Shown here: piece by piece, positions 9,511 through 46,626 of the stretch | Position numbering within the stretch: the first letter of the stretch is position 1 | Layout: every line of letters starts with the position of its first letter | Source of the DNA: a bacterium | GTDB lineage: Bacteria; Patescibacteriota; Microgenomatia; Daviesbacterales; UBA10151 | Assembly: GCA_021786315.1 (NCBI GenBank) | Contig: JAJYNN010000002.1 | Span: 31,370 to 95,369, forward strand | Direction: 5' to 3' | DNA length: 64,000 nucleotides | Program-made: the position numbers and the translations under genes | Notes under the pieces: model-generated | The model's database searches: none | Seen by the model: only the letters and a program-made list of their open reading frames with translations | What the model was told of the DNA's origin: nothing

Positions 9511-10641
9511 ATGAAGAATCCTCAAATAATCTTAGGAGTTGAAACAAGCTGTGATGAAACGGCGGCTGCTGTCGTGCAAAAAGATAATAATGGAGTACAA
9601 GTTTTATCCAATATTGTAGCTTCGTCCGCTTCACTGCAAGCAAAATATGGCGGCGTAATTCCGGAACAGGCTGCCCGGGAACAGTTGAAAAGTATCGTTC
9701 CAGTTATCGAAACAGCGATTAATGATTCGGGGTTAAAGGTTGACGAAATTGATGCTATCGCCGTCACCGCCGGACCGGGGCTGATTGGCTCACTGTTAGT
9801 CGGGGTCGAAACTGCCAAAGTCCTCTCCAAAACGTGGCAAAAGCCGCTGGTACCGGTTAACCACCTTGTCGGTCATTTTTACGCCAACTGGGTTAATTCC
9901 AGTGTATCGGAATATCGGAATATCGGAATATCGGAAAAATCAAAACCTTCCGACAATCTGACACCCCGACACTCTGACACTCCAACCTTTCCAGCAATCG
10001 GACTTCTCATTTCCGGCGGTCATACCGATTTGATTTTAATGAAGGATCACGGCAAGTACGAATACTTAGGCGGCACCCGCGACGACGCGGCCGGAGAGAC
10101 CTTTGATAAAACCGCCCGGCTTTTGGGCCTTCCCTATCCCGGCGGTCCCCAAATCTCCAAAGCGGCTGAGTTCGGAAACCCAGTTACCTACGGTCTGCCC
10201 CGGCCGATGATTTCCTCCGACGACTTCGATTTTTCCTTTTCCGGACTAAAGACGGCCGTCTCCAATCTGGCTACCCGGGGCAATGCCCGAAACGACCATA
10301 AATTTACCAACAACCTGGCCGCCTCGGTCCAGGCAGCAATTATCGATGTTTTAATTAAGAAAACCCTCCGGGCAATAAAACTGTATGATGTAAAACAGGT
10401 CGTGGTAGCCGGCGGGGTTGCCGCAAACCAAAAGTTGCGCAAACGGTTGACCCAGGCAATCCAAATGGAAGCGGGGCATGTGAAAATCTCTATCCCCCCG
10501 GTTAATTTGTGCACTGATAACGCCGTCTATATTGCCACTGCCGCTTTTTTCAATTACCACCCAACTGACCCCTTAACTTTACAAGCCAACCCCAACCTTT
10601 CCTTAGGATCGTCAGATCGCAAGCTCTGCTTTAGATTATAA
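9511..10641 (+). CDS. tsaD: tRNA N6-adenosine threonylcarbamoyltransferase TsaD; carries an in-frame ~30-aa repeat-derived insertion
   Basis: GVETSCDETAAAVV N-terminus, Kae1/YgjD core; insertion SEYRNIGISEKSKPSDNLTPRHSDTPTF is encoded by a (TATCGGAA)x4 tandem. Confidence 0.9.
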   Translation: MKNPQIILGVETSCDETAAAVVQKDNNGVQVLSNIVASSASLQAKYGGVIPEQAAREQLKSIVPVIETAINDSGLKVDEIDAIAVTAGPGLIGSLLVGVETAKVLSKTWQKPLVPVNHLVGHFYANWVNSSVSEYRNIGISEKSKPSDNLTPRHSDTPTFPAIGLLISGGHTDLILMKDHGKYEYLGGTRDDAAGETFDKTARLLGLPYPGGPQISKAAEFGNPVTYGLPRPMISSDDFDFSFSGLKTAVSNLATRGNARNDHKFTNNLAASVQAAIIDVLIKKTLRAIKLYDVKQVVVAGGVAANQKLRKRLTQAIQMEAGHVKISIPPVNLCTDNAVYIATAAFFNYHPTDPLTLQANPNLSLGSSDRKLCFRL

Positions 10642-16840: not shown

Positions 16841-16998
16841 ATTATTTTTCTTGCTATATTAGGCATCTTTCACACGTTATGGTACTTTTTGAGCGTGTGT
16901 ATTTCAAGAGAGAGCAAAGGTATAGAAGTAGTACAAGATTGTTCGGAGTTTCGGAACGTCAGCTTTTCAGAGTATCAGATCGCAAGCTCTGCTTATAT

Positions 16999-17415
16999 TC
17001 AGATATTCTGATCTAGGATTTCATTAACGAGGGCGTCGGCTTCTTTATTCTGTTCGCGGGGAATGTATGTGTAAACAACATGACCCAATTTCATTTCTAC
17101 ATTTTTGATTTCATCAACCACTATCTTTAATCTGGGGTTTTTAATTTTGAATTTTCCCGCAAGTTGGTTGACCACCAATTGGGAATCTGCCCGCAATTCA
17201 ATCTCTAAAGGTATATCTTGTGAAAAATTTGTCGAAAGATATTTAAAGGCTTCTTTTACCGCAGCATACTCAGCATCATTATTAGTTGCCACCCCAATAT
17301 AACCCCCCTCACGTGCGATGATTTGGCCGTTTTCATCGTGTAAAACAAAGGCTGCTGCTGCCTTACCGGGGTTACCGCGTGATCCTCCGTCAGTGTTAAT
17401 AATAAACTTTCTCAT
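16999..17415 (-). CDS. rnhA: ribonuclease HI
   Basis: INTDGGSRGNPG N-terminus; catalytic D/E/D/D pattern; ADALVNE near the C-terminus. Confidence 0.85.
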   Translation of the reverse strand: MRKFIINTDGGSRGNPGKAAAAFVLHDENGQIIAREGGYIGVATNNDAEYAAVKEAFKYLSTNFSQDIPLEIELRADSQLVVNQLAGKFKIKNPRLKIVVDEIKNVEMKLGHVVYTYIPREQNKEADALVNEILDQNI

Positions 17416-21561: not shown

Positions 21562-22887
21562 ATGGACAAGAATTGGTCGAAAGTTTTAGATAAGGTGCGT
21601 GATCAGGTTTCATACGTCAACTTTAAAGGGTGGCTCAATCCTTTATCTGCCGAGTTAAATGACAACGAACTGACTATCTTCGCACCTTCTGCCTTTGTTA
21701 AGGAAACGGTTTCCAGCCGTTATTTATCCCTACTGGAACCAGCCATTAAGGAAATCTATGGTGAAAATACCACCTTTTCTATTAAGGTTGACCCCAACAA
21801 AAATACTCCCAAGGAAGTTGTAGAGAGCGAGCCGGAAGAAATTTTTACCCCTGACATCCCATCACCGATGACTTTTGGATTAAATCCCAAATACACCCTG
21901 AGTAACTTTGTAGTGGGATTATCCAACAACCTGGCTTACGCGGCCGCCCAAGCTGTCGCTCAAAATCCCGGCACCAGCTACAACCCTCTCTTTATCTACG
22001 GCGGCACCGGAGTAGGGAAGACTCATTTAATGCAGGCTGTGGGAAATGTTTTGCTGCAAAAAAGGCCGAATATAAAAATCATTTATTGTTCCTCGGAAAG
22101 GTTTATGAATGATCTGGTCCAAAGTATCCAAACCAAAAGGACCGGGGAATTCCGGGCCAAATACCGGGCTTGCGATCTTTTACTAATTGACGATGTTCAA
22201 TTTATCTCCGGCCGGGATTCTACCCAGGAAGAGTTTTTCCACACCTTTAATGAACTCCAGGCTAAAAACTCCCAAATTATCCTCACCTCCGACCGGCCGC
22301 CCCAGGAAATCCAAAAACTGGAACCCCGTCTCCAGTCCCGTTTTCAGGGTGGATTAATGGTGGATATCCAAAACCCTGACTTTGATACCCGTGTCGCCAT
22401 TTTAAAGGCCAAGTGTGCTGAGCGGGGGGAGATAGTTTCGGAAGATATCCTAACCTTAATTGCTGAAAGCATGCCCACTAATGCCCGTGAACTTGAAGGT
22501 AAGTTTATCCAGATCGTTCAGTCAGCCAAACTGTTAGGCCAGACATTAACTGATGAAGGAGTCAGGCGTTTCCTAGGTGCCCCCATCCAAACTACCCAAA
22601 AGATTGACCATAAAAAGGTTATCGGGGAGATTAACCATTATTTCAATATTAAGACGGCCGATTTAACCGGTCCCCGGCGTAAAAAGGAATTGGTTATGCC
22701 CCGGCAAATCACTATGTACTTGCTTTATGAAGAGTGCAAACTTCCCTACGAGCGAATAGGGGAGCTTTTAGGAGGCCGGGACCATACCACTATTATGCAC
22801 GGTGTGGAAAAGATTGGCGAAGCCATCAACCGTGACCGGGAGATCCAAAGGATGCTTATTGAAATTAAACAGGCTTTGCAAGGATAA
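21562..22887 (+). CDS. dnaA: chromosomal replication initiator DnaA
   Basis: AAA+ Walker A (GGTGVGKTHLMQAVGN), Walker B, C-terminal DNA-binding domain. Confidence 0.97.
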   Translation: MDKNWSKVLDKVRDQVSYVNFKGWLNPLSAELNDNELTIFAPSAFVKETVSSRYLSLLEPAIKEIYGENTTFSIKVDPNKNTPKEVVESEPEEIFTPDIPSPMTFGLNPKYTLSNFVVGLSNNLAYAAAQAVAQNPGTSYNPLFIYGGTGVGKTHLMQAVGNVLLQKRPNIKIIYCSSERFMNDLVQSIQTKRTGEFRAKYRACDLLLIDDVQFISGRDSTQEEFFHTFNELQAKNSQIILTSDRPPQEIQKLEPRLQSRFQGGLMVDIQNPDFDTRVAILKAKCAERGEIVSEDILTLIAESMPTNARELEGKFIQIVQSAKLLGQTLTDEGVRRFLGAPIQTTQKIDHKKVIGEINHYFNIKTADLTGPRRKKELVMPRQITMYLLYEECKLPYERIGELLGGRDHTTIMHGVEKIGEAINRDREIQRMLIEIKQALQG

Positions 22888-22894: not shown

Positions 22895-23090
22895 GGGGTT
22901 ATCCACACTATGCACAAGGATATCCACAAAGTTATCCACAAGTGCACAAGGTGTTTTACACACGAAGAAGGGGCGAAACGCGTGGGTAAAATGAGCTTAT
23001 TATCCCCTTATCAACCGGCCCTAATAATATAACTACTGTTTATAAATATAACAGGGATGTTCTACGGAACATGTGGACAACTGATAAATA
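22895..23090. promoter_or_regulatory. oriC-like region: DnaA-box cluster plus AT-rich stretch
   Basis: TTATCCACA at ~22899 and ~22932, ATATCCACA at ~22920, TGTGGACAA at ~23071; AT-rich ~23030-23060; TGCACAAGG occurs twice. Confidence 0.6.
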
Positions 23091-23544: not shown

Positions 23545-23589
23545 TTTAGGGCTACCTTTTGACTTTGTCAAAACGATCCTGTAATTTTT
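23545..23589 (-). promoter_or_regulatory. conserved intergenic motif family A (copy 4; reverse orientation) immediately upstream of dnaN
   Basis: Reverse-complement reads AAAAATTACAGGATCG-TTTTGACAAAGTCAAAA-GGTAGCCCTAAATT. Confidence 0.5.
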
Positions 23590-24703
23590 GAAGACAAAAA
23601 TTATGAAATTTTCAATCCTACAACAAGATTTAATGCCGGCTTTATCCGCAGTTGCCCGTTCATCCGGAGTCCGGGCCCAATTACCTGTTCTAAGTAATAT
23701 ACTTTTACAAACAGAAGCAGGTAGGCTTAAACTTTCAGCCACTAACTTAGAGGTTGGGGTGGTAAAGTATGTCAAGGCGGAGATAGTTGAGGAAGGCGAG
23801 GTAACGGTTCCCGCCAAGACTTTGGTTGAGGTAGTGGCAAATTTATCCGGAGAAAAAATCGAGTTTTCCACAGCCTCCGATATTCTGGAAGTGGTTACTC
23901 CCAGTTTTTCCTCTAAGATTTCCGGTATTTCAGCCAGCGAATTTCCCACCATTCCTTTAACAGGTAAAGAGGCGGTGGTGATTGAGGCGCCGTTAATTTC
24001 TAAGTCGTTACCTCAGGTAGTATTTTCAGCAGCTGTAGATGACGGCCGGCCGATATTGACCGGAATTTTAACCGAGATTAAGGATGGGAATTTACGGTTA
24101 GTGGCCACGGATGGATATAGGCTGGCTCATAAAATAGTTCCAACCCCTAAAGATATCTCTTTTAAAGCCTTGGTTCCCCGAAGGACTTTTGAAGAAATAG
24201 TCAGGCTTATCTCTGAGGAGGAGACAGACCAGGTTAAGATTTCAGTTTCCGACGATCAAAACCAGGTGGTTTTTAGTTTTGGGAATACCGAATTTTCTTC
24301 CAGGTTGATTGAGGGGCAGTTTCCGGCATGGGAAAAGATTATTCCTTCTGAGCCCAAAGCCCGGGTTGTGGTTGATAAAAATGAAATCCTGAAGGCGGTT
24401 AAATTAGCCTCGGTATTTGCCAGGAATGAAGCTAATATAGTGAAACTGCAAAACTTACCCGGAAAGTTACTACTGACTTCCGAGGCTAAAGAGGTGGGTC
24501 AGCAAAAGAAAGAAGTTGAGGCTCAGGTTGAAGGGGAAGAGGTGCAAATTGCTTTCAATACTAAATTTTTACTGGATGTTTTATCAGCTATAAGTTCTTC
24601 CCAGGTAATTATTGAGCTCTCCGGTAATCTTTCGGCAGCATTGTTTAAACCAATGGGGGATGAGGGGTTGGAATATATTGTGATGCCGGTAAACTTAAGC
24701 TAG
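23588..24703 (+). CDS. dnaN: DNA polymerase III beta sliding clamp
   Basis: Three-domain beta-clamp pattern; follows dnaA and oriC. Confidence 0.92.
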   Translation: MKTKIMKFSILQQDLMPALSAVARSSGVRAQLPVLSNILLQTEAGRLKLSATNLEVGVVKYVKAEIVEEGEVTVPAKTLVEVVANLSGEKIEFSTASDILEVVTPSFSSKISGISASEFPTIPLTGKEAVVIEAPLISKSLPQVVFSAAVDDGRPILTGILTEIKDGNLRLVATDGYRLAHKIVPTPKDISFKALVPRRTFEEIVRLISEEETDQVKISVSDDQNQVVFSFGNTEFSSRLIEGQFPAWEKIIPSEPKARVVVDKNEILKAVKLASVFARNEANIVKLQNLPGKLLLTSEAKEVGQQKKEVEAQVEGEEVQIAFNTKFLLDVLSAISSSQVIIELSGNLSAALFKPMGDEGLEYIVMPVNLS

Positions 24704-25909: not shown

Positions 25910-28288
25910 TTAAATATGTCCTCCAAAACCGGTAATTTTCTCATCGGGATTAAAGTTATTTTGAATTTCCCAATTATCCACACTATATGTCCATCCGGTA
26001 TATTTACCAGCATTTGAATCATAGGTGGTTATATGACCAGTCCCGGTTGTTTTATCGACTGTGTTTTCTTTAACAATTGAGACATGCTCATTATAAGTTG
26101 TCACACCTGGTTTTTCTTCTTGGAACATGGCAAAACCCGGTTGGACATCTTTTAGAACCTGATGGTTTTGTTGATAATCGAGATAAATATAACCCAAAGA
26201 GGAAGATTTTTTCCAGAAGTTTTCCATATTAACTACCAAACCATGAACAGCTTTATCCAACCCTGAAAAACCAGCTAGATTGAAGGAGTCAATTACCAGG
26301 TATGTACAGGCATAGTTATTACTAGCTGCGGCAGTGTAACCATTATTTGTGATAGGAGAAAGGAGAATACTGCTGGATTTTTTATCGAAATTGTTAATAA
26401 TTGTCTGAGTCCATTGCAGAATATTATCCAATAAACCTCCGGAAGAAGCAGCGCTCTTACAGCCTTTGTAGCTGTTCCAGAGGTCGGAGCAGTAGCTGTA
26501 AGTTTGTCCGTTTTGGGAATACTCACATCCTCCATAGTAGGAGCTGGCTATTTGCCTTATTGTTGCCTCGTTATAAACAGGGTTTGTTCCGGCATCAAGT
26601 TTAGCCTTGATGGCGGTAGCTATAATTTCGTCCTTTATACTGTAGATCCGCATCTTATCTTCTGTTGTCTGCTTGTAAAGGGGATCATTAGGATCCTGGT
26701 ATCTTTTTTGGGTTATTTGGTTGCCTAATGGATTTGACAAATTCCCGTGATATTTATCAATAAAATCCCTACTTTTTACCCAAACGGGAATAAAACCTGT
26801 TTTTTCAGGGAACCTCTCTTTTAATTCATTGCTGTTGACTATATCAAGCCAAGTAGTGGGGGTGAATTGTGTGGCTCCAAAAGCTACCGGTTGTTGTGTG
26901 TCCTCGTCAAAAGAGTTGTGATCATCAAAATCATTCTCAAGATAGCTGGGATCATTGGTATAAAAACATTCCGGGCATTCGACCCGTAATATCCCCGCGA
27001 CGATAGATGGTGGGACTCCCACTCTTGAAGAAACATTATTAATAAGCTTTGGCCATTCGGGAGTTCTAAATTTTAATCCGGGAGTAGAATCCCCACCCCG
27101 GTAGAAAGTGCAGGAGGTTACATCTCCACTTGGGCTGACATTGTCGGGGTTACTAGAGGATCCACCCAAAAAGCCGAAGAATAGTATTATTCCAGCGAGA
27201 CCAAAAATAATACCGACAGCTGCCGGGCCTACCAGTCCAATTCGCAGCCAACTCAAAGGATTCAAATTAGAGCTAGAATGTTTATTGTTGTTATTCTTAG
27301 GAGTGTCTATATCAGGAAAGGTTTCTAACTCTCTAGGATTTTCTGATCCGCCTGCAATGGGCATAAGTACTCTCCCATTAGGCAAGATAAAATTAGAAAG
27401 ATCGACATCTGGTATCCCTAAATTAGATTGAGGTCTGGTGGGTCTTTGAAGAATAATATTTCCTGTAACTCTGCCTGATATTCCTCCAATGATAAAACCA
27501 AGCGCTGCTCCTGGTGGACCTCCCCAAAACAAACCTGCCGCTGCTCCTGCAGCTCCGCCTATAATTTCTCGGGGAAAGCGGGTAATAAGCCCGTGAAGTT
27601 TTCTTTGGCTATAGCTAACTGCATTTTTAATCGAAGATGGAGTTTCGAATTGCTTTAACCTTTGGATTATTGGATTCAACCTCTCTGAAAGTGTGGGTGA
27701 AGGGGCAGATGTAACACTTTCAGAAGATAGCGAACTTTCCTTAGGTGTTTCTTGCTTTTGGGATTGAGGTTGTTCTTCTTTGGCCTCGGTTGTTCTTTTG
27801 GAAGAAGACAATGTTAGTTCTTCTTTTTTGTCCTCTTCATTTATTCTTCTTTCAATCTCTTTTCGCCTGGCTCCATCGTCGTTAATATTATCCACCTCTT
27901 CCGGAATTAGATGGTTGGCTAGGAGAGGTTGTTGTTGCTCAGATCGGTTAACTGCTAAGGAGAATAGGTGTAATCTTTTCTCGTCATCAGAGTACTTAAC
28001 AAGGAAGGATTTAGAACTGTCAGGTGATTTTTTGCTGGAAAAGTATTCATTTTTATATTTTTGATCCATTCCTCCTGGAAGTTCAGATGAGACCATTGAA
28101 GCTGCATCCTGAAACATTTTTAAATAAAAGATTAAAGGTCGGCCTTGATACCTTATGGGCAGTCTGGCATCAATATAGCTGTCGATAAGTTTCCGTCCGC
28201 TTTCGGTTTGGTAGATTTTAAGAAACTGCTGGGCGTCTTTAATCTGATTAGGCCGGTATTTAGTAAAAAGATTGGTTAAATTAGCCAT
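25910..28288 (-). CDS. large membrane-anchored cell-wall hydrolase (PrgK/VirB1-like) with C-terminal CHAP-like domain
   Basis: Charged/coiled N-terminal region, Gly-rich TM region, central region with VPPSIVAGILRVE block, C-terminal Cys...His papain-like pattern (YACTYLV ... NEHVSIV). Confidence 0.55.
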   Translation of the reverse strand: MANLTNLFTKYRPNQIKDAQQFLKIYQTESGRKLIDSYIDARLPIRYQGRPLIFYLKMFQDAASMVSSELPGGMDQKYKNEYFSSKKSPDSSKSFLVKYSDDEKRLHLFSLAVNRSEQQQPLLANHLIPEEVDNINDDGARRKEIERRINEEDKKEELTLSSSKRTTEAKEEQPQSQKQETPKESSLSSESVTSAPSPTLSERLNPIIQRLKQFETPSSIKNAVSYSQRKLHGLITRFPREIIGGAAGAAAGLFWGGPPGAALGFIIGGISGRVTGNIILQRPTRPQSNLGIPDVDLSNFILPNGRVLMPIAGGSENPRELETFPDIDTPKNNNNKHSSSNLNPLSWLRIGLVGPAAVGIIFGLAGIILFFGFLGGSSSNPDNVSPSGDVTSCTFYRGGDSTPGLKFRTPEWPKLINNVSSRVGVPPSIVAGILRVECPECFYTNDPSYLENDFDDHNSFDEDTQQPVAFGATQFTPTTWLDIVNSNELKERFPEKTGFIPVWVKSRDFIDKYHGNLSNPLGNQITQKRYQDPNDPLYKQTTEDKMRIYSIKDEIIATAIKAKLDAGTNPVYNEATIRQIASSYYGGCEYSQNGQTYSYCSDLWNSYKGCKSAASSGGLLDNILQWTQTIINNFDKKSSSILLSPITNNGYTAAASNNYACTYLVIDSFNLAGFSGLDKAVHGLVVNMENFWKKSSSLGYIYLDYQQNHQVLKDVQPGFAMFQEEKPGVTTYNEHVSIVKENTVDKTTGTGHITTYDSNAGKYTGWTYSVDNWEIQNNFNPDEKITGFGGHI

Positions 28289-30041
28289 TATCTACTTTTT
28301 TCCTTGCGAGGAGTTCCTGGGGGTTGGTGGTGATTAAATTATGCTCTTCTTCTGAGGCAACTACCCTCATGGCAACGTGGGTATTGCCGGCAAAGAACAA
28401 TCCCTGGCCGATACTGCCTGCCTGCAGGATCCTTTTTTCTCCTTGGGAAAGGTTAAAGACCTGGCCTAAGGTTTCCACGGAAATAGGCGCTTGTTTTAGT
28501 AGAACCTGCATGGCGGAGTTGGAAATAATTTCCTTGCCCCGGTCGGTGCCTAAGAAATCCTCCACATCTTGGCTGATAGTGGTTACTCCTAAGAAATATT
28601 TACGTGAACGTTTAACCATCTCTACTAAGAAGGCGGCGGAATCGGGATACTTCATCATGTACCAGGCTTCATCTACTACCAGGATCCTTTTCTTAAGCTC
28701 CCGCCTGATCTTTGTCCAAACATAATCCAGGATCAGGTACATAGCCAAAGGCCGCAGCTGGTCGGGAAGTTCGCGGACGGAAAAGACGGTAAAAGGATTG
28801 TCTAATTTGATATTGGAGTGGGTAGAGAAAATCCCGGATAGTGATCCTTTAATAAACCTCTCTAGTCTTACAGCTAAGGAGTTGGCTATTTGGTCTTCCA
28901 TGCCGATTAAGACTTTATACAGATCCTCCATAAGGGGCGGTTCGGCTCCGGCGGGCATGTTGGTGGAGGTAATTCCTTTGAGGCGGTAAGTCGTATTTAG
29001 TGCCCGGTCTAAGATTGCTGCTTCCTGGGAATTAAGATCCCCTAAAACCAGCTTCAAAAATCCAATTAAAGAAAGGATTTTTCTTCCCAACTCATCCTCG
29101 CCTCTGTCGGCCACTTCCGGCAAGTCAAAGGGGTTAATCTTTACCGGTGAGTTTGAGGAGAAGCTAATATAATCCCCGCCCACGGCTTTAGCTAAATCGG
29201 CATACTCCCTTTCCGGATCGATCACGATAACCTCAGTGCCCAGCATTAACGACCTTAAGGCCTCAAGTTTGACGAAGTAGGATTTACCGCTGCCGGCCGT
29301 GGCCAAAACTACCGAGTTGGCGTTTTCCCCTCCAAAGCGGTCGTAAATAATTAAGGAATCATTATGTTCGTTGATCCCGTAAATTACCCCTTCAGCCGAC
29401 ATCAGTTCAGAAGATGTAAAAGGGAAAGTGGTGGCCAAAGAGGTGGTATCCATGTTGTGGGTCAGGTACAAAAGATCCTGGCCTAACGGCTCGGTGCAGA
29501 TAAACCCTTCCTGCATCTGTAAAATCGAAGGTCTGACAGTCACTGAAATACTTCCTAAGGTTGATTCAACGAGTTGAGATTTGTTGTCGAGCTCGGTTTT
29601 GGACCTGGCGGGAGCAGTAATATATAGGCTGTATTGGAAAAATCTTTCGGCGCCTTTGGCCAGTTGTTCCTGTAAATCCCGGGCATCTTCCAAGGCCACG
29701 GTAACTGAGGGGTCGATCACCCGGCCCCGTTCAACGTCGGTCTGAATGGTTGCCTCCATCTCGGCGATCTTTCTTTTTAGATCATCCAGAACTCCGGCAG
29801 ATTTAGTAGGGTATATAAACATGGAAATATATAAGGAATGCTCAAAAGAAACGAGTGGTTCCAGCCAATTGGGTTGAACAAATCTGGGGTATCCCGAAGC
29901 ATAAAAGGTGCGGTAAACACTGTTACAAAGCCGAAGATACGAAAAATCCACCTCCATCTCTAAAGGTGCAACGACATCTTCAATATTTAGCCCTGTGGAA
30001 ACAGGAGCTGGTTGGTTAGTTTTTTTACGGCCCAAAATCAT
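28281..30041 (-). CDS. VirB4/TraE/TrsE-family T4SS ATPase, C-terminal ATPase portion
   Basis: Walker A LATAGSGKS, Walker B ILVVDEAW, conserved YYRTF...GYP middle region and TTISQDVED block. Confidence 0.85.
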   Translation of the reverse strand: MILGRKKTNQPAPVSTGLNIEDVVAPLEMEVDFSYLRLCNSVYRTFYASGYPRFVQPNWLEPLVSFEHSLYISMFIYPTKSAGVLDDLKRKIAEMEATIQTDVERGRVIDPSVTVALEDARDLQEQLAKGAERFFQYSLYITAPARSKTELDNKSQLVESTLGSISVTVRPSILQMQEGFICTEPLGQDLLYLTHNMDTTSLATTFPFTSSELMSAEGVIYGINEHNDSLIIYDRFGGENANSVVLATAGSGKSYFVKLEALRSLMLGTEVIVIDPEREYADLAKAVGGDYISFSSNSPVKINPFDLPEVADRGEDELGRKILSLIGFLKLVLGDLNSQEAAILDRALNTTYRLKGITSTNMPAGAEPPLMEDLYKVLIGMEDQIANSLAVRLERFIKGSLSGIFSTHSNIKLDNPFTVFSVRELPDQLRPLAMYLILDYVWTKIRRELKKRILVVDEAWYMMKYPDSAAFLVEMVKRSRKYFLGVTTISQDVEDFLGTDRGKEIISNSAMQVLLKQAPISVETLGQVFNLSQGEKRILQAGSIGQGLFFAGNTHVAMRVVASEEEHNLITTNPQELLARKKVDNG

Positions 30042-30870
30042 CGTTTAACTCTTCCACGACAAATGGGGGAGAAAGGGGGGTGGTGGATGAAGGAGCTGGG
30101 GCAGAGGGAATGGGAGTTTGGGGTATGGGGTGAGGCGCAAAAGCTGGTTGAGTGGGAGCGGGTTGAGGTAAAGGTGCAGTAGTTTGGGGAGCAGCTACTT
30201 CCACAGGTTGGTTTATTAGCTTCTTGTCTTCACCGGCCACCTGGTCTACTGATTTATCTGATTTTCTGGCTTCCGGCTTCTGTTTTCCATCCTCCAGGCT
30301 AAACTGGTTTTCCGGATAAGGTGGGTTATAGATGTTGTAAAAGAGGGTCACCAGGTCAGGGGTGGTCATTTGTCTGGACTTTAACCCTAACCTGGAAAGT
30401 TGCCTAATGACGTGGTCTCGCCTGGGGGCAAGCACCGTGGTTGCCCGTTTGCTTTTGTCGGCAATATTTTTAGGTAAAACTCCGAGCTCCACCGGATTTA
30501 CCGCCAGGCAAACATAAAATTGTTTATCCAGGACGTTTTTCTCCTTAATAATACCGGCCACAAATTCGCGGTAACGGGCGGTCATGTTTTTTAACAGGGG
30601 ATTAGTCTGGGTGGCCAAAGCCTTATCTAAAGTTGACAGGTATGATGAGACATCCAGCCTTCTGGACTGGACAACAATTTGGATAGGGAAGGAGAGGGAG
30701 TTTAAAAACCCGGCAAAGGATTCAATAATCGACATTTGCTCAGTTTCAAAAAGCAGCCCGAAGTTCACAGCGGAGGTAGAAATGACCATAGTTACCCCTC
30801 CGTTTTTTAAAAAGACTAAATTATCTTTAATATCGGCAATAGGTACAAAACTTTGGCTACGATTGACCAT
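30025..30870 (-). CDS. VirB4 N-terminal domain encoded as a separate ORF with a Pro-rich C-terminal linker
   Basis: PIADIKDNLVFLKNGGVTMVI...SEEQ pattern typical of the VirB4/CagE N-terminal region; 17-nt overlap with the ATPase ORF in another frame. Confidence 0.5.
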   Translation of the reverse strand: MVNRSQSFVPIADIKDNLVFLKNGGVTMVISTSAVNFGLLFETEQMSIIESFAGFLNSLSFPIQIVVQSRRLDVSSYLSTLDKALATQTNPLLKNMTARYREFVAGIIKEKNVLDKQFYVCLAVNPVELGVLPKNIADKSKRATTVLAPRRDHVIRQLSRLGLKSRQMTTPDLVTLFYNIYNPPYPENQFSLEDGKQKPEARKSDKSVDQVAGEDKKLINQPVEVAAPQTTAPLPQPAPTQPAFAPHPIPQTPIPSAPAPSSTTPLSPPFVVEELNDDFGP

Positions 30871-32062
30871 TTTCTGCTTTCTTTGGATGGATTGTAATTG
30901 GCTGAATAACCTCCCCTTCTAAAGAAATTTGTAAGGTATCAAATTCCATGTTCTCTTTTTCCATGGTTAAGTTGTAGGTTCCTGAGGGGAGTGGAGTGGC
31001 GCCACTGAATTGTCCCAGCTTATTTGTCTTTAACGCCCTTACCGGAAGGCCCTCGCTGTTATGGATAATAACAATTACTCCTTCCAGGAAGTTGCCTGCT
31101 TCATCAGAGATAACTCCGTTGATGACGTTGGGGAGCGAAGTTAGGGTGATCTGGGTCTTAACCTCTTTTTTGGGTTCTACTACCACCACATGAGCTTTTT
31201 GGGGTTGCACAACTGGGGTCGGTACAGCAACAGGGTTTTGGGGTGTGGGCTGAGCGGTTACCTGGTTGATTTGGGAAGTTTGTTGATATAGTTTTCCGGT
31301 TTGGGCAACCAGGTTTTGTAAGTTTTGGGAAGCTTGTTGGAATTTTGCAGCGTATTCCGGCCCCGCGATTTCTTTTTGGGCGGCCATGCTCCGGAGAACT
31401 TGGATTTGCCTTTCGGCTTCGGCGATTTTGGATTGTAATAAATGCGCCTCATTAGCCATAGCTACCAATTTGGATAGGTTTTCACTGGAGGGGAGCGCTG
31501 TTGGCGCAGGATTGGTTTGGGTTGTTGTTTGCAGCTGTGGTGTTGGCTCAGGAGCAGGACTTGGACCAGGTGTTGAGGAAAGTGGTGCCTGTGTTTGAGA
31601 TACCGGGGTTGAAGACGGTGCCAAGCGGGTCATCCTTGGCAGAGGTGCGGCAGATTTGGGCTGGGGAGCGGGAGATGTTACCCCAATATTAGTCAGGTAT
31701 CGTTGCAGACGGTTCTTAAAGAGGGGATCGTTGTCGCTAACCTTATTTTTTTGGCCTGTGATTACCCAAAAGCCTTGGGTAGGCGAGTAAATGGCCTTAA
31801 GAAATGCCAAAACCCAGTGATCTAGAGGCCGGTCAAAGATAGGCACAAAAGCAAAGGCTATGCCGGTTAGGGTTGAGACTGTAATAATAGGCAGAGCCAG
31901 AAAAATATTTACCGGGAAGAGCAGGGTAAAAGATACATAGGCAATGGCAAAGCCGGTAGCCAGATACCCAAACTGTTTTAAGGTCATATCTCCCACCAAA
32001 CGGAACTGGAAGGAAGTGACGTTTTGGGGGACAGGATGATCTAGCATAGCAAAAGGGATCAT
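30857..32062 (-). CDS. PrgI/VirB3-like membrane protein fused to Pro-rich linker, coiled coil and C-terminal CarboxypepD_reg-like beta-sandwich domain
   Basis: N-terminal FQFRLVGDMTLKQF plus two TM helices (PrgI-family pattern); C-terminal GVISDEAGNFLEGVIVII...GxYNL pattern of carboxypeptidase regulatory-like domains. Confidence 0.45.
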   Translation of the reverse strand: MIPFAMLDHPVPQNVTSFQFRLVGDMTLKQFGYLATGFAIAYVSFTLLFPVNIFLALPIITVSTLTGIAFAFVPIFDRPLDHWVLAFLKAIYSPTQGFWVITGQKNKVSDNDPLFKNRLQRYLTNIGVTSPAPQPKSAAPLPRMTRLAPSSTPVSQTQAPLSSTPGPSPAPEPTPQLQTTTQTNPAPTALPSSENLSKLVAMANEAHLLQSKIAEAERQIQVLRSMAAQKEIAGPEYAAKFQQASQNLQNLVAQTGKLYQQTSQINQVTAQPTPQNPVAVPTPVVQPQKAHVVVVEPKKEVKTQITLTSLPNVINGVISDEAGNFLEGVIVIIHNSEGLPVRALKTNKLGQFSGATPLPSGTYNLTMEKENMEFDTLQISLEGEVIQPITIHPKKAENGQS

Positions 32063-32400
32063 ATAGCGTGAAAAATGGGTCGTCTAGGGGCTCAAAATGG
32101 GTCATTTCCGACCTATCCTTACTTATTTAATTCACAAGATGAAAAAATAAACCCAAAAATTGGGTAATTGACACAAAAATTTAAAGTTGTTAACGTAATT
32201 TCCGTGGTGTACCGGGTCAGTATTTTTGGCCCAAGGTACATAGGGAATCTTGTGTAAATCAAGAACTGTGCCGCAACGGTAATCCAGAATGTCGGAATAT
32301 CGGAGCGTCGGAACGTCAGAAAATTTAAATTCTGAAACGCTGATACTCTGAAACGCTAACACAATGGTTAAGTCCGGAGACCGACCACAATCCAAAATAT

Positions 32401-32703
32401 TTGGATCAATCCCGTTGCAGGAATATGACAGAGATATTTTTAAATCCTCTAAAATTAGATCAAGCTAATTCATCTAGCAGTTGCACTCCTGATCCTTCTC
32501 TCTTCGAAGAAGTTGTCGACCATGCTTCTAGAATTTCCCGTTTCGATTTAGAAATCCAACAAAAACCTGATCAGCCAGCCAACCAAATGCTGTTACAGGC
32601 CCTAACACTAACCCCTTATTTTTCCTGTCCTAAATGCGGCCAGGTTATCTTTTTAGGGCCGGAGAAATCGGGCTGTTGTAGCTGCTGTAAAACAGATGCT
32701 TAA
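32401..32703 (+). CDS. small Cys-rich protein (zinc-ribbon-like C-terminus)
   Basis: CPKCG...CCSCCK at the C-terminus; start uncertain. Confidence 0.3.
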   Translation: MDQSRCRNMTEIFLNPLKLDQANSSSSCTPDPSLFEEVVDHASRISRFDLEIQQKPDQPANQMLLQALTLTPYFSCPKCGQVIFLGPEKSGCCSCCKTDA

Positions 32704-32791
32704 TGTTTGACAGGCTCTAGAGTTTACGCGTACACTTAACTTGAGATTTGTCCCCTAAAGTGCTATAATTATAGGCTTTCATGGAGGACCT

Positions 32792-35230
32792 ATGTCAAAA
32801 GAATTTATGAGTGAAATTGGGTCAGAAATAGCACCAGGATCAGGATCTGGTTTTGTGGAAAATTCCTCTACTGGAGATCAAGGCAGTTCTCCGTCATCTA
32901 GTGAAATACTCAGTTCTCCTGTTACTTCTCCGGAATCAAAAACAACTTCAACAGATGATTTGATTATAAAAGAAGATGGCCATTTTTGGGTAGCTTATGA
33001 TTCTTCAGGTCACGAAGTTAGAAGATTTCCAAAAGTTGAAGGTGGGGCGCCTCGGGGTCGAGGCTTGGATCAAGAATTTCTCGAAGCAGAAGCCGCGAAA
33101 TTAGCAGCGGAAACAGATCCTTATAAAATTATTGCCACTGTAGATGGGATGGCTATTGGGGAAGCTGGGAAACTAGCGATCTTATTGCAAGTAGATAAGC
33201 TGCGGGGAGAACAGCCGTATTTAGTTTGGGAGAGAGTAGAGAACCTAATTCGGGGTATAGAAGCCCAGGGGGCTGAATTTCCTGATGGAACAGCCTCATC
33301 CCTTGCCAATATTGTCAACGAGGGATTGTCATCCAACGATGAGCTGCGTTCGAAACTGTTTAATTTAATTTTAGCCCGTTACCGTTATCAAAACATAAGC
33401 TACGGTATAGAAGTTGTGGGACTGGAGACTGCGGCGAAACATTTTGGTAATTTAAATGGAAAACAAAATGAAGCTATTTTGGGATTAGGTGGCGTCACTC
33501 AGGCGCTTGAGCTGTCTAACCGCCAGGATGTGGTCAGGCAAAAAGATGGTCTCTCAGATCTGGCTAAAAACGTTAACAACCGGATGACTATTGCCCGGGG
33601 AATTCTGGATGGTAAGGATTCAGTGGGGGTGGCTACAAAGAGAGATGAATATCACAAGCTTTTCCCTGACGTTGATATTGACGCTTTAATAAGCAGCGGG
33701 CATATGGAGGAATTATTCGCTTTAGATCTAAGCCTGCTTGCTGTAGTAGAAAAAAAAGGAACAGAAGCTGGCAAGGAAGATTTTATAAAAGCGGTCGATA
33801 AGGTGGCTAAAGTGGGCGATCGAACTTTTACTGATGCAGAGAAAGAAGCCTTAAAGAAATGGTGGGAATCGAGAAATGAGTTGGAACAACGGGCTTTAAG
33901 CAGATTGCAGCATGAAACTGTACGGGCATTTGATTTAGCCAAAAAAGCGATGAATGTGGTAGGAATTACCGGCAGGTATGACAGCCCGGTTGTCCGGACC
34001 GGTAAAGGCGCCAATGATTTTACTTTCTTGGATATTTATAGAGAGCTTGATCCGATTGTTTCCTATGAAGATGCCGCAGGGGAGAAGCTCGAAGTACACC
34101 TTAATTCTGTGGCTGATATAGCAGACGTTGTAAGAACTATCCGCGATGGGTCTGGAAGAGCAGGGATTGTGGCTATTGCCGGTGAAGATGCTGTCGCGAA
34201 AAAAGAAACTGAAACTAAAAAGAGTATTCTGGATGCGAGTGAAGACGATTTAATTAAATTAATCAGAGAAGGAATGTCCAAGGTAGCTACCAGGGCCCAG
34301 GTCGAAGCGATGGCAGCAATCATACCTGATGTCAGAATAAGAAATGGGCTGATTGATTTATGGGCAGTAGATAAGATTAAAAAAGGTGACGAGGCAGTTG
34401 TTAAAGACATTAAAGCAAAGCATGAGAGGGGTGAGGATGTTGGTTTAGATGACTTGAAAGATCTGGATTTAGGTTACTCTTATAAGATTGCCATGGCCTG
34501 GGATAAGGCCTTGCGGGAATACTTTGTAAAACATTGGGATGAAATTTCGATCCCGTTATCTTTACAGGGGAGTGCCCCAACTTCCCTTAAAAGGGCTTAC
34601 TATTTTCCAGCCTTTATTCCCAGAACGTCTAATGCTGATAGAGGCCGGGCAGGTTATCTTTGGAGATATTCCCATCTTAACGCGCTCGATTTAATGAGCT
34701 ATACAGGCAGGTCTTCTATTGTCGACCAGCTCAAAAATTGGGGTGATGACATCGGGATTATTCTTTCTTGGAGCGGAAGGCTAAAAGGAGCGGATGATAT
34801 GCGTAAAGTAATCGCTGCCGGAGGAGAGGTGGCACTCTTGGATAGTCCTGATGTGCTTAATAGCCCTATTACTTCTTTACCGAAGCTAAAAGGGAAAGCT
34901 GCTTATGTTCCACCAGAAGAGCTTCGTGACTATATGGGGCATTGGGCAGAGGGTGTATCAATATTTTTGAGAAAGTTTAACCGACAAACATTTGGTGGGA
35001 AATTTAAGAATGTTGATGTGAGTTCTGAATATGAAACTTATAAAGCCTTAACTGCTCAGGGAGTTATAGATCAGAACGTAGAAAAAGAGCTTGTAAGAAG
35101 AGAGTTTGGTTTCTGGGGGTATTTTAAAGCAGAAGTTATTTTATTTGTTCAAAGAGCGGATTGGGGAGGGGCGTTTGGAGATGCCTTAAAGAAATTTTTA
35201 AGCGCACTTGGTTTAGGTTCAGGAAAATAA
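32792..35230 (+). CDS. large hypothetical protein (812 aa) inside the T4SS-like locus
   Basis: No TM helix or recognisable catalytic motif; S/T-rich disordered N-terminus. Confidence 0.4.
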   Translation: MSKEFMSEIGSEIAPGSGSGFVENSSTGDQGSSPSSSEILSSPVTSPESKTTSTDDLIIKEDGHFWVAYDSSGHEVRRFPKVEGGAPRGRGLDQEFLEAEAAKLAAETDPYKIIATVDGMAIGEAGKLAILLQVDKLRGEQPYLVWERVENLIRGIEAQGAEFPDGTASSLANIVNEGLSSNDELRSKLFNLILARYRYQNISYGIEVVGLETAAKHFGNLNGKQNEAILGLGGVTQALELSNRQDVVRQKDGLSDLAKNVNNRMTIARGILDGKDSVGVATKRDEYHKLFPDVDIDALISSGHMEELFALDLSLLAVVEKKGTEAGKEDFIKAVDKVAKVGDRTFTDAEKEALKKWWESRNELEQRALSRLQHETVRAFDLAKKAMNVVGITGRYDSPVVRTGKGANDFTFLDIYRELDPIVSYEDAAGEKLEVHLNSVADIADVVRTIRDGSGRAGIVAIAGEDAVAKKETETKKSILDASEDDLIKLIREGMSKVATRAQVEAMAAIIPDVRIRNGLIDLWAVDKIKKGDEAVVKDIKAKHERGEDVGLDDLKDLDLGYSYKIAMAWDKALREYFVKHWDEISIPLSLQGSAPTSLKRAYYFPAFIPRTSNADRGRAGYLWRYSHLNALDLMSYTGRSSIVDQLKNWGDDIGIILSWSGRLKGADDMRKVIAAGGEVALLDSPDVLNSPITSLPKLKGKAAYVPPEELRDYMGHWAEGVSIFLRKFNRQTFGGKFKNVDVSSEYETYKALTAQGVIDQNVEKELVRREFGFWGYFKAEVILFVQRADWGGAFGDALKKFLSALGLGSGK

Positions 35231-37326: not shown

Positions 37327-37767
37327 TTATCTGACTGGTGTGGGAGTAACTATGATTGGAGCGGTGGATGTCAGAGAGGGGATAGTTAAGTTGCCCAGGA
37401 TGTTAATGCCTAAGATATTGCCGACTACAAAGACTATCACAAAAGCAAATGCCAAGATTGCGAGGCCGATTAAAGCGTTGGTAATTCTCTTCCGGGCATT
37501 GCCTACAGCCTCCTTGTCACCACCGGAGGTGATCCATTGGAAGGCTCCGATAATCAGCATCACCAATACTGCTAAAGCGGCAACAACGAAAATAATTCTG
37601 ATAAGGTTGGTAAAAAGTACCCCGACAATACCATTGGTGGGGGTGATGGCGGTTCCCGGGGGAGGAGCAACGTTGACTGTAATGTCCGCAAAAGCTTTGC
37701 TGGTGATTGCGAGTGAGCCTAAAGTAGTGAGTAAAGCAGCAACTCTTTTCATGACTGATCTCATCAT
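37327..37767 (-). CDS. pilin-like small membrane protein, paralog P4
   Basis: Signal-like N-terminus; QWITSGGDKEAVGNARKRITNALIGLAIL motif; ~48 nt near-identical to P3. Confidence 0.6.
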   Translation of the reverse strand: MMRSVMKRVAALLTTLGSLAITSKAFADITVNVAPPPGTAITPTNGIVGVLFTNLIRIIFVVAALAVLVMLIIGAFQWITSGGDKEAVGNARKRITNALIGLAILAFAFVIVFVVGNILGINILGNLTIPSLTSTAPIIVTPTPVR

Positions 37768-37801
37768 ATGCCGATTATTATTTACTTGTCAAGCACGGCC
37801 T

Positions 37802-38203
37802 TTATTTAGTTAGCTTGACTTGTCCTTCGAAGAATTGGAATCCGGTAATATCGCCAATGACATTAATAATGACCCAGGCTAAAGCCAAAAGAACTATTCC
37901 AATAATTGCCCAAGTGAGCCTTCTCCGGGCGTTGCCTACAGCCTCCTTGTCACCGCCGGAGGTGATCCATTGAAGACCGCTGATTAAAACCATAAAGATA
38001 AAGATTATCCCTGCCGCCACATAAATTAATTGGATTGTATTGTTTAATACCGTGCTAATGCCTTTACCTCCCGGTCCTAAAGCGGCAATTGGGGTAGGGG
38101 CTTCAACTTTTCCGATGACATCGTCCACACTTTGGGCAGCAGCCAGACTAACTTGTTTTAAAAATATGGCGATACCCAAAAGAGGGACAAGAATTTTTTT
38201 CAT
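37802..38203 (-). CDS. pilin-like small membrane protein, paralog P3
   Basis: Signal peptide plus QWITSGGDKEAVGNARRRLTWAIIGIVLL motif. Confidence 0.6.
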   Translation of the reverse strand: MKKILVPLLGIAIFLKQVSLAAAQSVDDVIGKVEAPTPIAALGPGGKGISTVLNNTIQLIYVAAGIIFIFMVLISGLQWITSGGDKEAVGNARRRLTWAIIGIVLLALAWVIINVIGDITGFQFFEGQVKLTK

Positions 38204-38529
38204 GGGTTTGTTTTAATGACCTCGAATCCTTTCAGGCCTAAAAACTCCGGCACAAATTGGATAATTAAAAACATCAGCATTAATAGTATAAAACCTATAA
38301 TAGCATGGATAATCATGTTCCGGGCACCAGAAACGGCATTTTTATCGCCCCCGGAGAGGACAAACCTAAAGGCTCCAATTAAAAAGTAGATAATGACGGC
38401 CAGTGCAGCAATGGCAAATCCCGGGCCGACTAATGCACCCATGACACTGGCTAGTGAATCATAGTTGCCAAAGCCATAAGCATCTTTTAAATCAACACTG
38501 GCAGCATAAGCAGTCGGAATGAAATTCAT
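38200..38529 (-). CDS. pilin-like small membrane protein, paralog P2 (the track ORF 38200..38640 is probably N-terminally over-extended)
   Basis: VLSGGDKNAVSGARNMIIHAIIGFILL motif; start ATG overlaps the stop of P1 (ATGA). Confidence 0.5.
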   Translation of the reverse strand: MNFIPTAYAASVDLKDAYGFGNYDSLASVMGALVGPGFAIAALAVIIYFLIGAFRFVLSGGDKNAVSGARNMIIHAIIGFILLMLMFLIIQFVPEFLGLKGFEVIKTNP

Positions 38530-38864
38530 GGCGTTGTTACGGTTGTTATCGGTATATCTTTTGGTTTGGCCAGATCCTCTTTTAAGAATTGGCTGATAGC
38601 AAAAGCTAGAATCAGTATAACAAAACCAACGATTGACCAAATGATCCTTTTACGGGCATAGGACAAACCTTCCTTACTACCTCCGGCAAAGATGTATTGG
38701 AAAACTCCCCAGGCAAACCAAAAAAGCATTAAAAATCCTCCGACCATTAACGCCAGGTTCAAAAAAGCGGAGATTACTCCTCCTAAGGTAGGTTCTTTAA
38801 TGGCAAAACCCGCCCCGGTTTTTATTGGATCAGCATCAAAAATTGCTTTAAGTCCTGGAATCAT
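38526..38864 (-). CDS. pilin-like small membrane protein, paralog P1
   Basis: IFAGGSKEGLSYARKRIIWSIVGFVIL motif; start overlaps the stop of the upstream adhesin-like gene. Confidence 0.5.
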   Translation of the reverse strand: MIPGLKAIFDADPIKTGAGFAIKEPTLGGVISAFLNLALMVGGFLMLFWFAWGVFQYIFAGGSKEGLSYARKRIIWSIVGFVILILAFAISQFLKEDLAKPKDIPITTVTTP

Positions 38865-44797: not shown

Positions 44798-44915
44798 ATT
44801 TTCAAGTACCAAGTACCAGTTTTCAATCAATATCCAATAACCAATTTTCCAATTTAGACGTTAAAAAATTGAAAATTCATTGGAAATTTAAAATTATGAA
44901 TTTAAAATTATAACA

Positions 44916-45405: not shown

Positions 45406-45804
45406 GGGGACGTACAGATTCGACGTTCTGGCACTTTAAAAACTGCAAGCCGAAAAGGAAACCTTATTCGTAAAATACGGTTTCAAAAATAAATGCTAAG
45501 GTAAACACCTTCGCATCCCAGGTGCAAAAGTTTGCACTCGGTGTATTTTCTACACCGCAGCGCTACGCTCTAGCATAAGGGTACTTTAGGGTAATGTCTG
45601 TCTGGCGCAATCCTTAAGGTAAGTACAAAGCCAGGTTGCAAAAATTATGGTGTTGGTTGATCCGTAATTTTTAAAGACAACTCAATCAAGTTTTAGTTTT
45701 CCTGCTAGTTTGGTTACAACTAGAACTTAAAAATTAACTAGCTAAGCTTGTAGAAGTTTTTACTCTGTTAGTACACACAGGGCTCAATGCCCTCGTCTCC
45801 ACCA
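45406..45804 (+). ncRNA. ssrA: tmRNA (ssrA)
   Basis: 5' GGGGACGTACAGATTCGACG pairs with 3' ...CGTCTCCACCA (acceptor stem with G3-U wobble, Ala identity); internal tag ORF ends ...FSTPQRYALA-TAA; directly downstream of smpB. Confidence 0.8.
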
Positions 45805-45831: not shown

Positions 45832-46527
45832 ATGCCACATATCCTTGATATCTTATTTCCTAAGCTCTGTGTGGGTTGTCATAAGCTTGGCACCTATTTT
45901 TGTCCCAAATGTATAAACAACATTGCCCAGGGGGAGTTGGTGTGCCCAAATTGCGAAAAAGCGGCTATTGGGGGAATGACCCATCCGCTTTGTAAAAAGA
46001 GGTATGGTTTGGATGGGCTTTGGAGTCTGGGAATTTATCAGGATCCTTTAAAGAAAGCGATCCAAAAACTCAAATATAAATTTGTTTCCCAGATTGCCGA
46101 AACGCTTTTGGATTTAATGATTGTTTATTGGGCCAAACACATTCCGCAATTTTTGGAGGAGATTAAAAAGGATAAGGGAGTAGGGTGGGTGGTAGTGCCG
46201 GTGCCCCTACATCCCAAAAGACAAAAGTGGCGGGGCTTTAATCAATCAGCCTTATTGGGAAAAATGTTATCCCAAAAATTAGGTATGGAATATGCTGAAG
46301 CTTTGAAGCGTACCCGTTACACTAAACCCCAGGTAGGTATAAAAGCTTGGGAAAGAAAACAAAATATGCACAATGCTTTTGCTCCGAATTTAAAATTTAA
46401 AATTGAAAATTTAAAATTTCTCCTGGTAGATGATGTCTGGACTACCGGTTCAACCCTAAAAGAATGTGCTTATGTCTTAAAAAAAGGAGGAGCCCAGAAA
46501 GTCTGGGCAATTACATTGGCTAGGTGA
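45832..46527 (+). CDS. comFC: ComF family protein (ComFC-like phosphoribosyltransferase)
   Basis: N-terminal CxxC...CPxC zinc finger; C-terminal PRTase block LLVDDVWTTGSTL. Confidence 0.8.
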   Translation: MPHILDILFPKLCVGCHKLGTYFCPKCINNIAQGELVCPNCEKAAIGGMTHPLCKKRYGLDGLWSLGIYQDPLKKAIQKLKYKFVSQIAETLLDLMIVYWAKHIPQFLEEIKKDKGVGWVVVPVPLHPKRQKWRGFNQSALLGKMLSQKLGMEYAEALKRTRYTKPQVGIKAWERKQNMHNAFAPNLKFKIENLKFLLVDDVWTTGSTLKECAYVLKKGGAQKVWAITLAR

Positions 46528-46626
46528 TTATTGATCCTGAATTTGATAAAATTGTCAGGCATGGAGAGGTCGCATAAGACATCTTTGCCTTCAGCAAAGA
46601 ATCTTGAGCTACTCTCTGTTGTAAAA

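Follow-up and report, generated by a model that had tools for sequence, protein, structure and literature searches.

How does a DNA repeat with an 8-nt unit come to lie in frame inside an essential gene, and why do similar arrays stand elsewhere on the same stretch of chromosome? The question is raised by tsaD in a 64,000-nt stretch of a bacterium of the Candidate Phyla Radiation (CPR; Patescibacteriota, Microgenomatia, Daviesbacterales), which comprises positions 31,370 to 95,369 of contig JAJYNN010000002.1 (assembly GCA_021786315.1) and is called the window here. An earlier note on this DNA had reported a TCGGAA-type 8-nt repeat in tsaD with related arrays at ~32.3 and ~16.9 kb, and had suggested either a small repeat element that can colonise an essential gene or iterated protein-binding sites. 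Judged by their sequences, the three arrays are one family: E1 lies in a surface-loop segment of tsaD, E2 in a peripheral stem of a cobalamin riboswitch and E3 at the end of a gene (Table 1). The first of the two labels is broadly right and is the most reasonable one. We see an even chance that the family consists of neutral or selfish quasi-palindromic short-unit repeats that arise through slippage and template switching and persist only where the site is permissive.

The repeat in tsaD is real. Tandem Repeats Finder (TRF) reports TATCGGAA x4.0 at 9905-9936, with 100% matches and a score of 64, and CCGACAATCTGACACC x1.9 at 9950-9980, and both the lag-8 and the phased-core scans given below go far beyond chance. 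The host open reading frame (ORF) stays intact across it, matches PF00814 and has a confident predicted fold. The 8-nt array of the earlier note thus stands, but not as a plain direct array: its right half is an inverted copy of the left, and the whole is a dyad that can form a hairpin. The right arm is made of four TCYGACAN units, and the left arm is its inverted, transition-diverged counterpart. On the plus strand the arms pair through 25 Watson-Crick, 12 A.C, 2 G.T and 4 other positions. When E1 is folded alone as RNA, the minus strand reaches -42.2 kcal/mol (z -5.25) and the plus strand -23.4 kcal/mol (z -2.9), and in a sliding-window fold the minus strand of E1 is the strongest hairpin of the entire window (-47 kcal/mol, GC-corrected z -5.3); these z-scores are inflated, as one unit pair is repeated four times.

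The repeat region is translated as VNSSVSEYRNIGISEKSKPSDNLTPRHSDTPT. Relative to a baseline TsaD loop of 6-7 aa, E1 adds about 25-26 aa, in frame as the earlier note had it, rather than the ~30 aa that it gave. The window TsaD is a 100% match to the protein P0001, encoded on a 942,606-bp NCBI contig, and the one independent contig that carries tsaD shows 100% identity across 1874 nt. The P0001 protein as annotated by NCBI/ENA (355 aa) begins at a GTG that lies 21 codons 3' of the ATG (window 9511-9573), while the window ORF and the Logan assembly start at the ATG (376 aa); the NCBI/ENA form is probably truncated, since the longer form includes the conserved ILGxETSCDET N-terminus.

Table 1. 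Positions of the three repeat copies, their parts and their hosts in the window
Feature	Position	Strand	Description
tsaD ORF, host of E1	9511..10641	+	376 aa; ORF list, PF00814
E1 dyad-symmetric core (GTGT...ACAC)	9902..9980	.	79 nt; codes for TsaD residues ~131-157
E1 left arm	9905..9936	+	perfect (TATCGGAA)x4; Tandem Repeats Finder, repeat-family search D1
E1 loop	9937..9948	+	AAATCAAAACCT, 12 nt; read from sequence
E1 right arm	9949..9980	+	TCCGACAA TCTGACAC CCCGACAC TCTGACAC; TRF periods 8 and 16
E3, degraded copy	16941..17015	.	five 8-nt-phased cores and one inverted unit
Cobalamin riboswitch aptamer, host of E2	32191..32403	+	RF00174, model positions 1-189 of 189
E2	32290..32362	+	distal part of the riboswitch P6-extension hairpin; 4+4 units
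E2 left arm	32290-32321	+	TGTCGGAA TATCGGAG CGTCGGAA CGTCAGAA
E2 loop	between arms	+	AATTTAAAT
E2 right arm	32331-32362	+	TCTGAAAC GCTGATAC TCTGAAAC GCTAACAC

That the three arrays belong together, as the earlier note had proposed, is borne out by several comparisons. Moved along both strands of the window, either arm of E1 finds its best match outside E1 in E2 and its next best in E3. E1 and E2 are identical at 60 of 82 aligned positions (73%), with a single 3-nt gap that falls in the loop, and have in common the YR prefix, a TCTGAMAC right-arm unit, the 4+4 layout and the position of the loop. E2 also folds, on the plus strand, at -26 kcal/mol (z -3.4) into helices of 5-6 bp with symmetric internal loops between them, its arms pairing via G.U wobbles on the transcribed strand. 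E3 is present but weaker than the earlier note had stated. Its TCRGA/TCAGC cores follow in 8-nt phase at 16943, 16951, 16959, 16967 and 16975, with an inverted unit TCAGATATTCTGA at 16999-17011, and it shares identical stretches of 12 nt (TCGGAACGTCAG) and 14 nt (CTGATACTCTGAAA) with E2. The core size in the family is 74-79 nt.

Scans of the window for the periodicity itself find the same sites. A lag-8 self-match scan with a cut-off of at least 17/24 matches returns four stretches only, the two arms at 9895-9991 and two at 32284-32363, and none in shuffled sequence. With up to 2 mismatches allowed, a run of three TCRGA cores phased at 8 nt occurs 13 times against 0.44 expected, all at 9899-9985, 16943-16979 and 32284-32351, and two TCNGA cores in that phase occur 10 times against 0.56 expected, at the E1, E2 and E3 sites only. 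Other CPR loci, 655 kb in all, lack the TCRGA-phase motif. The family is known here from three copies within 64 kb, the better two of which are ~73% alike.

All three sites look permissive. The riboswitch that hosts E2 matches RF00174 over the full aptamer model (48.7 bits vs a gathering score of 31.5, E 3.8e-9); its conserved core and B12-box region align well, and at E2 the alignment has low posterior and long insertions, so the P6 extension would accept extra sequence while the match still clears the gathering score. The earlier note had called this copy intergenic and upstream of a type IV secretion system (T4SS) operon. The position holds, but the array is not plainly intergenic, lying within a plus-strand riboswitch; on the minus strand the T4SS genes (PrgI-like, TraG-like) lead away from this same gap, and that context is incidental. 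E3 takes in the stop codon and the 5 codons before it of a minus-strand RNase H gene (16999-17415), and stands upstream of a DUF4012 gene. Neither at E2 nor at E3 were scans for promoters and terminators informative.

The loop in TsaD was examined in 120 CPR orthologues of 57-70% identity, the loop being taken as the segment between W127 and F160. It is 6-8 aa long in 31 of them (26%), e.g., IGSIPT, and at least 16 aa in 70 (16-41 aa in 58%), with a hypervariable sequence; about three quarters of the set carry some insert at this site. An AlphaFold2 model of the window TsaD (mean predicted local distance difference test, pLDDT, 88.6; predicted template modelling score, pTM, 0.88) places the loop between the helix with the HxxxH motif and the strand leading to SGGHT. 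Residues 129-161 are modelled as coil, and pLDDT falls below 50 at 137-154. Since this is low-pLDDT coil in an otherwise confident model, the insert is predicted to be a disordered surface loop of ~26 extra hydrophilic residues.

The earlier note had proposed that an alignment of orthologues would confirm a lineage-specific insertion. This is so for the sequence and not for the site. A GACAC-type arm is common to four orthologues (the window TsaD, P0007, P0033 and P0113), and the window insert therefore appears, from these sequences, to be inherited within a sub-lineage, with unrelated inserts in other lineages. At the DNA level the orthologous inserts are periodic, palindromic or both, and consist of arrays of unrelated 7- or 8-nt units and of palindromes. 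In P0007, five to six ATCAGTRN units are followed by a loop and then by a perfect (CCGACACA)x4.6; P0118 has 7-nt TCAGCYN units with an inverted partner; Daviesbacteria loci have either a perfect inverted repeat of 11 bp (HLPG...HLEG) or units of the ACAGCAA type; and Saccharibacteria and other CPR loci have pure 7-nt arrays. In locus L002 the minus strand of the insert folds at -51.6 kcal/mol (z -9.8) and the plus strand does not fold (z +0.2), and in P0033 only the right arm is kept and the minus-strand fold is no longer significant (z -0.7). Empty loops, unrelated sequences and the loss of an arm in P0033 suggest that the insert is dispensable and fast-changing. A neighbour-joining tree of the 120 proteins is star-like and does not separate vertical inheritance from repeated insertion. 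Close relatives of the window TsaD were not found in genome and metagenome contig collections, where the best match has 61% identity and belongs to Candidatus Daviesbacteria.

Other peptides occupy the same site in P0006, P0018, P0034, P0058, P0069, P0087 and L361, namely the SLRA...APRND, VIPAKAGI and SDPSTSLGMT types. We take these to be translations of widespread multi-copy palindromes like the repetitive extragenic palindromic (REP) sequences, in which case unrelated palindromes also land in the TsaD loop. A second variable site lies near the C-terminal third of TsaD, where P0007 and P0033 carry a 7-nt array, TTAAAAA x4.7 (L002:10968-11013, L003:5692-5739), with the peptide KLKIKSEKLKIK; the window TsaD has no insert there.

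Short-unit arrays are a feature of the wider background as well. In 562 kb of TsaD-bearing loci, mostly from CPR, a lag scan of equal stringency (at least 19/21 positions matching) found 14 arrays at lag 7, 3 at lag 8 and 1 at lag 9, with none at lags 4-6 or 10-13 and none in shuffles, and the copy number that TRF gives for the heptamer arrays has its mode at 4.3-4.7. In L366, a locus from a metagenome-assembled genome of Candidatus Saccharibacteria (CAZVFH010000006.1), 11 heptamer arrays of 3.6-4.7 copies (L366:2168-13694) stand in 21 kb. Seven of the 11 are in frame inside ORFs, three of these in TsaD and one in a 737-aa ORF, and each coding array yields a low-complexity peptide of ~11 aa, e.g., VSQKSKVKSQKF. 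Many of the units follow an AAAANNN pattern that gives Lys-rich peptides. The final partial unit of the VSQKSKVKSQKF array overlaps the codons of the conserved KFP, which is what multiplication of a local 7-mer in place would give.

From this material a mechanism may be drawn. The plan of the family is ~4 direct units of 8 nt around a TCRGA core, then a loop that is short and A/T-rich, then ~4 inverted units. A short inverted repeat, TCGGAA ... TTCCGA, would be enlarged by replication slippage of the 8-nt unit, the opposite arm would be matched through intramolecular template switching (quasi-palindrome correction), and the arms would later diverge by transitions. Within a gene only a three-unit jump (+24 nt, from 1 to 4 copies) would preserve the frame: three added 7- or 8-nt units make 21 or 24 nt, and the 1-to-4 jump is therefore the smallest expansion that keeps it. 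This would explain the perfect (TATCGGAA)x4 and fits the x4.6 array of P0007. E1, which amounts to 78 nt over a 6-aa loop, could then be a 30-nt proto-hairpin (TCGGAA, the 12-nt loop, TTCCGA) plus 24 nt per arm. The element in tsaD would simply be transcribed and translated as ~26 hydrophilic, disordered residues. Because the copies share the TCRGA core, the YR prefix, the right-arm unit, the layout and the place of the loop, the three loci would have to be explained by copying or by a local process that is sequence-specific.

A number of points weigh against neutral or selfish repeats of this origin. There are three copies only, ~73% alike, within 64 kb; a local origin from local sequence should not yield a common TCRGA unit at three loci; and the flanks show no consistent target-site duplication, with TCCA at E1 and none at E2. 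The one-step jump from 1 to 4 units is our inference, and a preference for four units is also seen in non-coding arrays, where the frame cannot be its cause (PMC4692102). All three copies lie within 13 kb of the replication origin oriC (E1 13 kb, E3 6 kb, E2 9 kb), which a purely neutral model does not predict; with n=3 this is not significant, three copies having a chance of ~0.07 to lie together within 26 of 64 kb. Finally, the four tsaD hairpins show a strong bias among their arm mismatches towards A.C as read on the sense strand (43 vs 8, counts inflated by the repetition of one unit pair), and this could reflect selection on an antisense RNA or a DNA hairpin.

A bolder version, which we hold to be rather doubtful, is that a distinct mutational process in CPR takes a 7-8-nt motif from one to ~4 copies at a single stroke and is able to produce its mirror image in the other arm of a hairpin. 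By this route modules of 21 or 24 nt would enter essential genes and structured RNAs without frameshifted intermediates. The TCNGA family would be the footprint of a sequence-specific form of the process, e.g., repeated staggered cleavage with fill-in, or reiterative slippage at a hairpin, and the recurrent four units of Geobacter, Xanthomonas, Nostoc and the window would have this one-step cause in common.

It is unlikely, in our view, that the family is a classical non-autonomous transposable element moved in trans, of the miniature inverted-repeat transposable element (MITE), REP or Rickettsia palindromic element (RPE) type, with the arms as terminal inverted repeats. The arms of E1 have the pairing that such repeats call for (25 Watson-Crick and 14 transition mismatches among 43 positions), TCCA stands on both sides of the E1 core, and the family is dispersed, with inverted arms, its members lying in a gene, in an RNA element and at an intergenic end; the putative REP-like palindromes at this site of other TsaD orthologues also speak for such an element. 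MITEs, however, come as multiple close copies beside an autonomous element, and here the copies are only ~73% alike and no transposase or REP-associated tyrosine transposase (RAYT) is found among the ORFs of the window. A Y1_Tnp profile search, which covered window ORFs of at least 100 aa, gave no match, and the sole recombinase in the window is a XerC/D-like gene at 61.7 kb. The core of E1 with one TCCA (79 + 4 nt) is no multiple of three, no flanking direct repeat was found at the ends of the E2 array, which has a 10-nt AATCCARAAT pair around it, 26 nt beyond the array, and the want of a consistent duplication may count against transposition too. Neither E1 nor E2 matches plasmid and phage collections in BLAST, and the orthologous inserts of L002-L004 have no second copy in their own loci with 6-17 kb of flank.

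The closest functional analogue is the RPE, to which E1 is alike as a palindromic repeat in frame in a housekeeping gene at a tolerated site. RPEs are in-frame insertions at structurally tolerant positions, found in non-coding DNA as well, and are regarded as selfish. They have been reviewed (PMC10969869, PMC1779305); compared by description, they measure 100-150 bp, form high-copy families (tens to hundreds), lack an 8-nt periodicity and belong to Rickettsiales, whereas the family here is octamer-built, 74-79 nt long and present in three copies in 64 kb. REP sequences and bacterial interspersed mosaic elements (BIME) linked to RAYT are likewise short, imperfect, dispersed palindromes that form hairpins in DNA or RNA, but they are extragenic, 20-40 nt long and present in hundreds of copies, in contrast to the intragenic E1 and the riboswitch-borne E2 in a window that lacks Y1_Tnp.

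We consider it improbable that the arrays are iterated sites for a DNA-binding protein of the ribbon-helix-helix type, serving as operators or as origin-proximal, centromere-like sites. MetJ, a ribbon-helix-helix protein, binds 8-bp metboxes in 2-5 copies, and the omega protein of pSM19035, of the same fold, binds 7-bp heptads in direct and inverted order. The likeness is plain, with tandem boxes of 7-8 bp in both orders, and the strict 8-bp phase, the direct and inverted TCNGA-core units at three sites only and the nearness of all three to oriC speak for such a role; no match to canonical parS better than chance and no ParA or ParB is found in the window, which leaves room for a non-canonical system. 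Were they indeed protein-bound sites close to oriC, the arrays would point to a system of chromosome organisation not yet recognised in CPR. The MetJ and omega sites, though, are promoter or centromere sites with a cognate repressor, and here the arrays stand in a coding loop, an RNA stem and a gene end. No ribbon-helix-helix or other candidate regulator was found among the profile-searched ORFs, small ORFs having been listed and not profile-searched. The units are poorly conserved (TCGGA, TCAGA, GACAC, CTGAA), in other lineages the arrays in the TsaD loop are unrelated, a single genome, that of L366, contains many different units, and the nearness to the origin rests on three sites with the chance level given above. 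On these grounds the second label of the earlier note finds no footing.

An equally poor chance attaches to a functional RNA hairpin, i.e., a structural part of the riboswitch in E2 and a cis-antisense RNA or an element of mRNA processing or stability in tsaD. The outstanding minus-strand stability of E1 and of the L002 insert would fit it, as would arm mismatches that are nearly all G.U-compatible on the antisense strand in four orthologues of different sequence, and the wobble pairing of E2 on the transcribed strand. Against it, 26% of the orthologues have no insert, others have pure direct arrays and P0033 has lost an arm, and the z-scores and mismatch counts are inflated as said. The asymmetry between strands would also arise if T-rich hydrophobic codons were selected against or if a stable mRNA hairpin were avoided, and it is expected too from the C-rich context of tsaD on the lagging strand, which is that of the window and of four Microgenomates loci (L002, L003, L348, L349). 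No Rfam family besides the cobalamin riboswitch covers E1, E2 or E3, and no antisense promoter has been shown, no search for one having been made.

Very improbable is independent local slippage at three loci with units alike by chance and no family at all: heptamer and octamer arrays with many units do arise throughout related genomes, but each of two further random octamer arrays would show a TCRGA core, in any phase and on either strand, in ~3% of cases, E1 and E2 share their prefix, TCTGAMAC unit, layout and loop position besides, and no other TCNGA-phase pairs occur in the window and none in the 655 kb of other CPR DNA. TIGR-Tas arrays, which are found in Patescibacteria and rely on CUGA box D motifs, were considered and rejected, as their period is 36 nt vs 8 here and no Tas or Nop-domain protein is found in the window.

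Tolerated short-unit repeats, the reading that we prefer, have counterparts in other bacteria. Geobacter metallireducens has ~4 tandem hepta- or octanucleotide repeats in opposite-strand pairs, within and between genes (PMC2700814), and the arrays here resemble them in unit number (4.0 + 4 in E1, 4 + 4 in E2), in inverted pairing and in occurring at genic and non-genic sites. The Geobacter units are GTTGCTYN and GGACCGG, in tens of copies per genome, at variable pair distance and sometimes several per gene; they have been proposed, without a test, as sites for IHF/HU or a global regulator, and some are targets of insertion sequence elements (PMC2700814). GGGAATC arrays of Xanthomonas and Nostoc prefer four units and include some inverted pairs (PMC4692102), and heptameric repeats are further known as heptanucleotide arrays of cyanobacteria and TAACTGA repeats of Beggiatoaceae (PMC4679880). 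With these the CPR arrays share an excess of 7-nt and some 8-nt units, a preference for four and occasional inverted pairs that form stem-loops. The heptameric repeats, however, are mostly intergenic and their four units have been explained by G-quadruplexes, whereas the arrays here are not G-rich and many are in frame in essential genes. In-frame palindromic inserts and short-unit arrays of four copies were thus already known; a copy within a riboswitch stem and the CPR-wide hot spot in TsaD are new.

If this reading is true, the reduced genomes of CPR tolerate, and keep generating, non-triplet tandem or palindromic DNA of 7-8-nt units in essential genes and even in a riboswitch. Gene calling and protein alignment in CPR would be affected, as hypervariable low-complexity loops would be encoded by DNA repeats and not be selected peptides, and so would the modelling of riboswitches, whose peripheral stems could derive from repeats. 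It would also bear on the long-known and unexplained surplus in bacteria of heptameric repeats with about four units. For work on the mechanism, the TsaD loop, filled in some genomes and empty in others, offers a natural series.

Some features of the surroundings deserve mention. Downstream of the riboswitch (32191-35230) come a small ORF of ~92 aa with a probable ATG at 32425 and then an 812-aa ORF (32792-35230), both without a Pfam match. Homologues of the latter were sought so as to compare riboswitches with and without E2, and none but the protein itself was found among 5.8 billion proteins; by its sequence context it appears to be a B12-regulated orphan gene. Type IV secretion-like genes lie at 25910-32062, 37327-40318 and 57765-60107 and encode a PrgI-like protein, a TraG P-loop ATPase, several proteins with T4SS-pilin domains and a second, VirD4/HerA-like ATPase; among them are large ORFs without a Pfam match, including ones of 792, 603 and 281 aa.

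The window includes the replication origin, with a change of sign in GC skew at 22-24 kb. Three DnaA-box-like 9-mers, TTATCCACA, ATATCCACA and TTATCCACA, stand at 22895-22945 (~22.9 kb) between dnaA (21562-22887) and dnaN (23588-24703) and, more narrowly, between dnaA and a Holliday-junction-resolvase-like ORF, and rnpA, yidC, a Jag/KhpB-like gene and rpmH are found just upstream of the origin region.

Four TCRGA units in 8-nt phase were also met at 110 viral loci in a scan of public collections. The control cores AGRCT and GTRCA gave at least 120 each, and the viral loci were rejected as family members and regarded as generic octamer microsatellites. One of the viral contigs, from a giant virus (GVMAG-M-3300023184-96, L009:7061-7110), carries (TATCGGAA)x6 in an A/T-rich, intergenic-looking stretch; this is probably a coincidence, because the controls show such octamer microsatellites to be common in viral contigs.

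The window has heptamer arrays of its own, five at lag 7 against 0.8 expected in shuffles, among them AATTTAA x4.7, ATTGAAA x4.4 and AGTAGTA x4.3 (sites 46387-46419, 48717-48747, 56034-56063 and 44828-44911). The array at 48717-48747 is in frame in an FtsJ-like methyltransferase (IENWKLKIKNS), and the remaining ones stand upstream of tRNA-Ser genes and of smpB. The adjoining tRNA-Ser genes (anticodons GCT and TGA; 46624-46804) are themselves a 92-nt tandem repeat of 79% identity, and tmRNA adjoins smpB (45406-45804).

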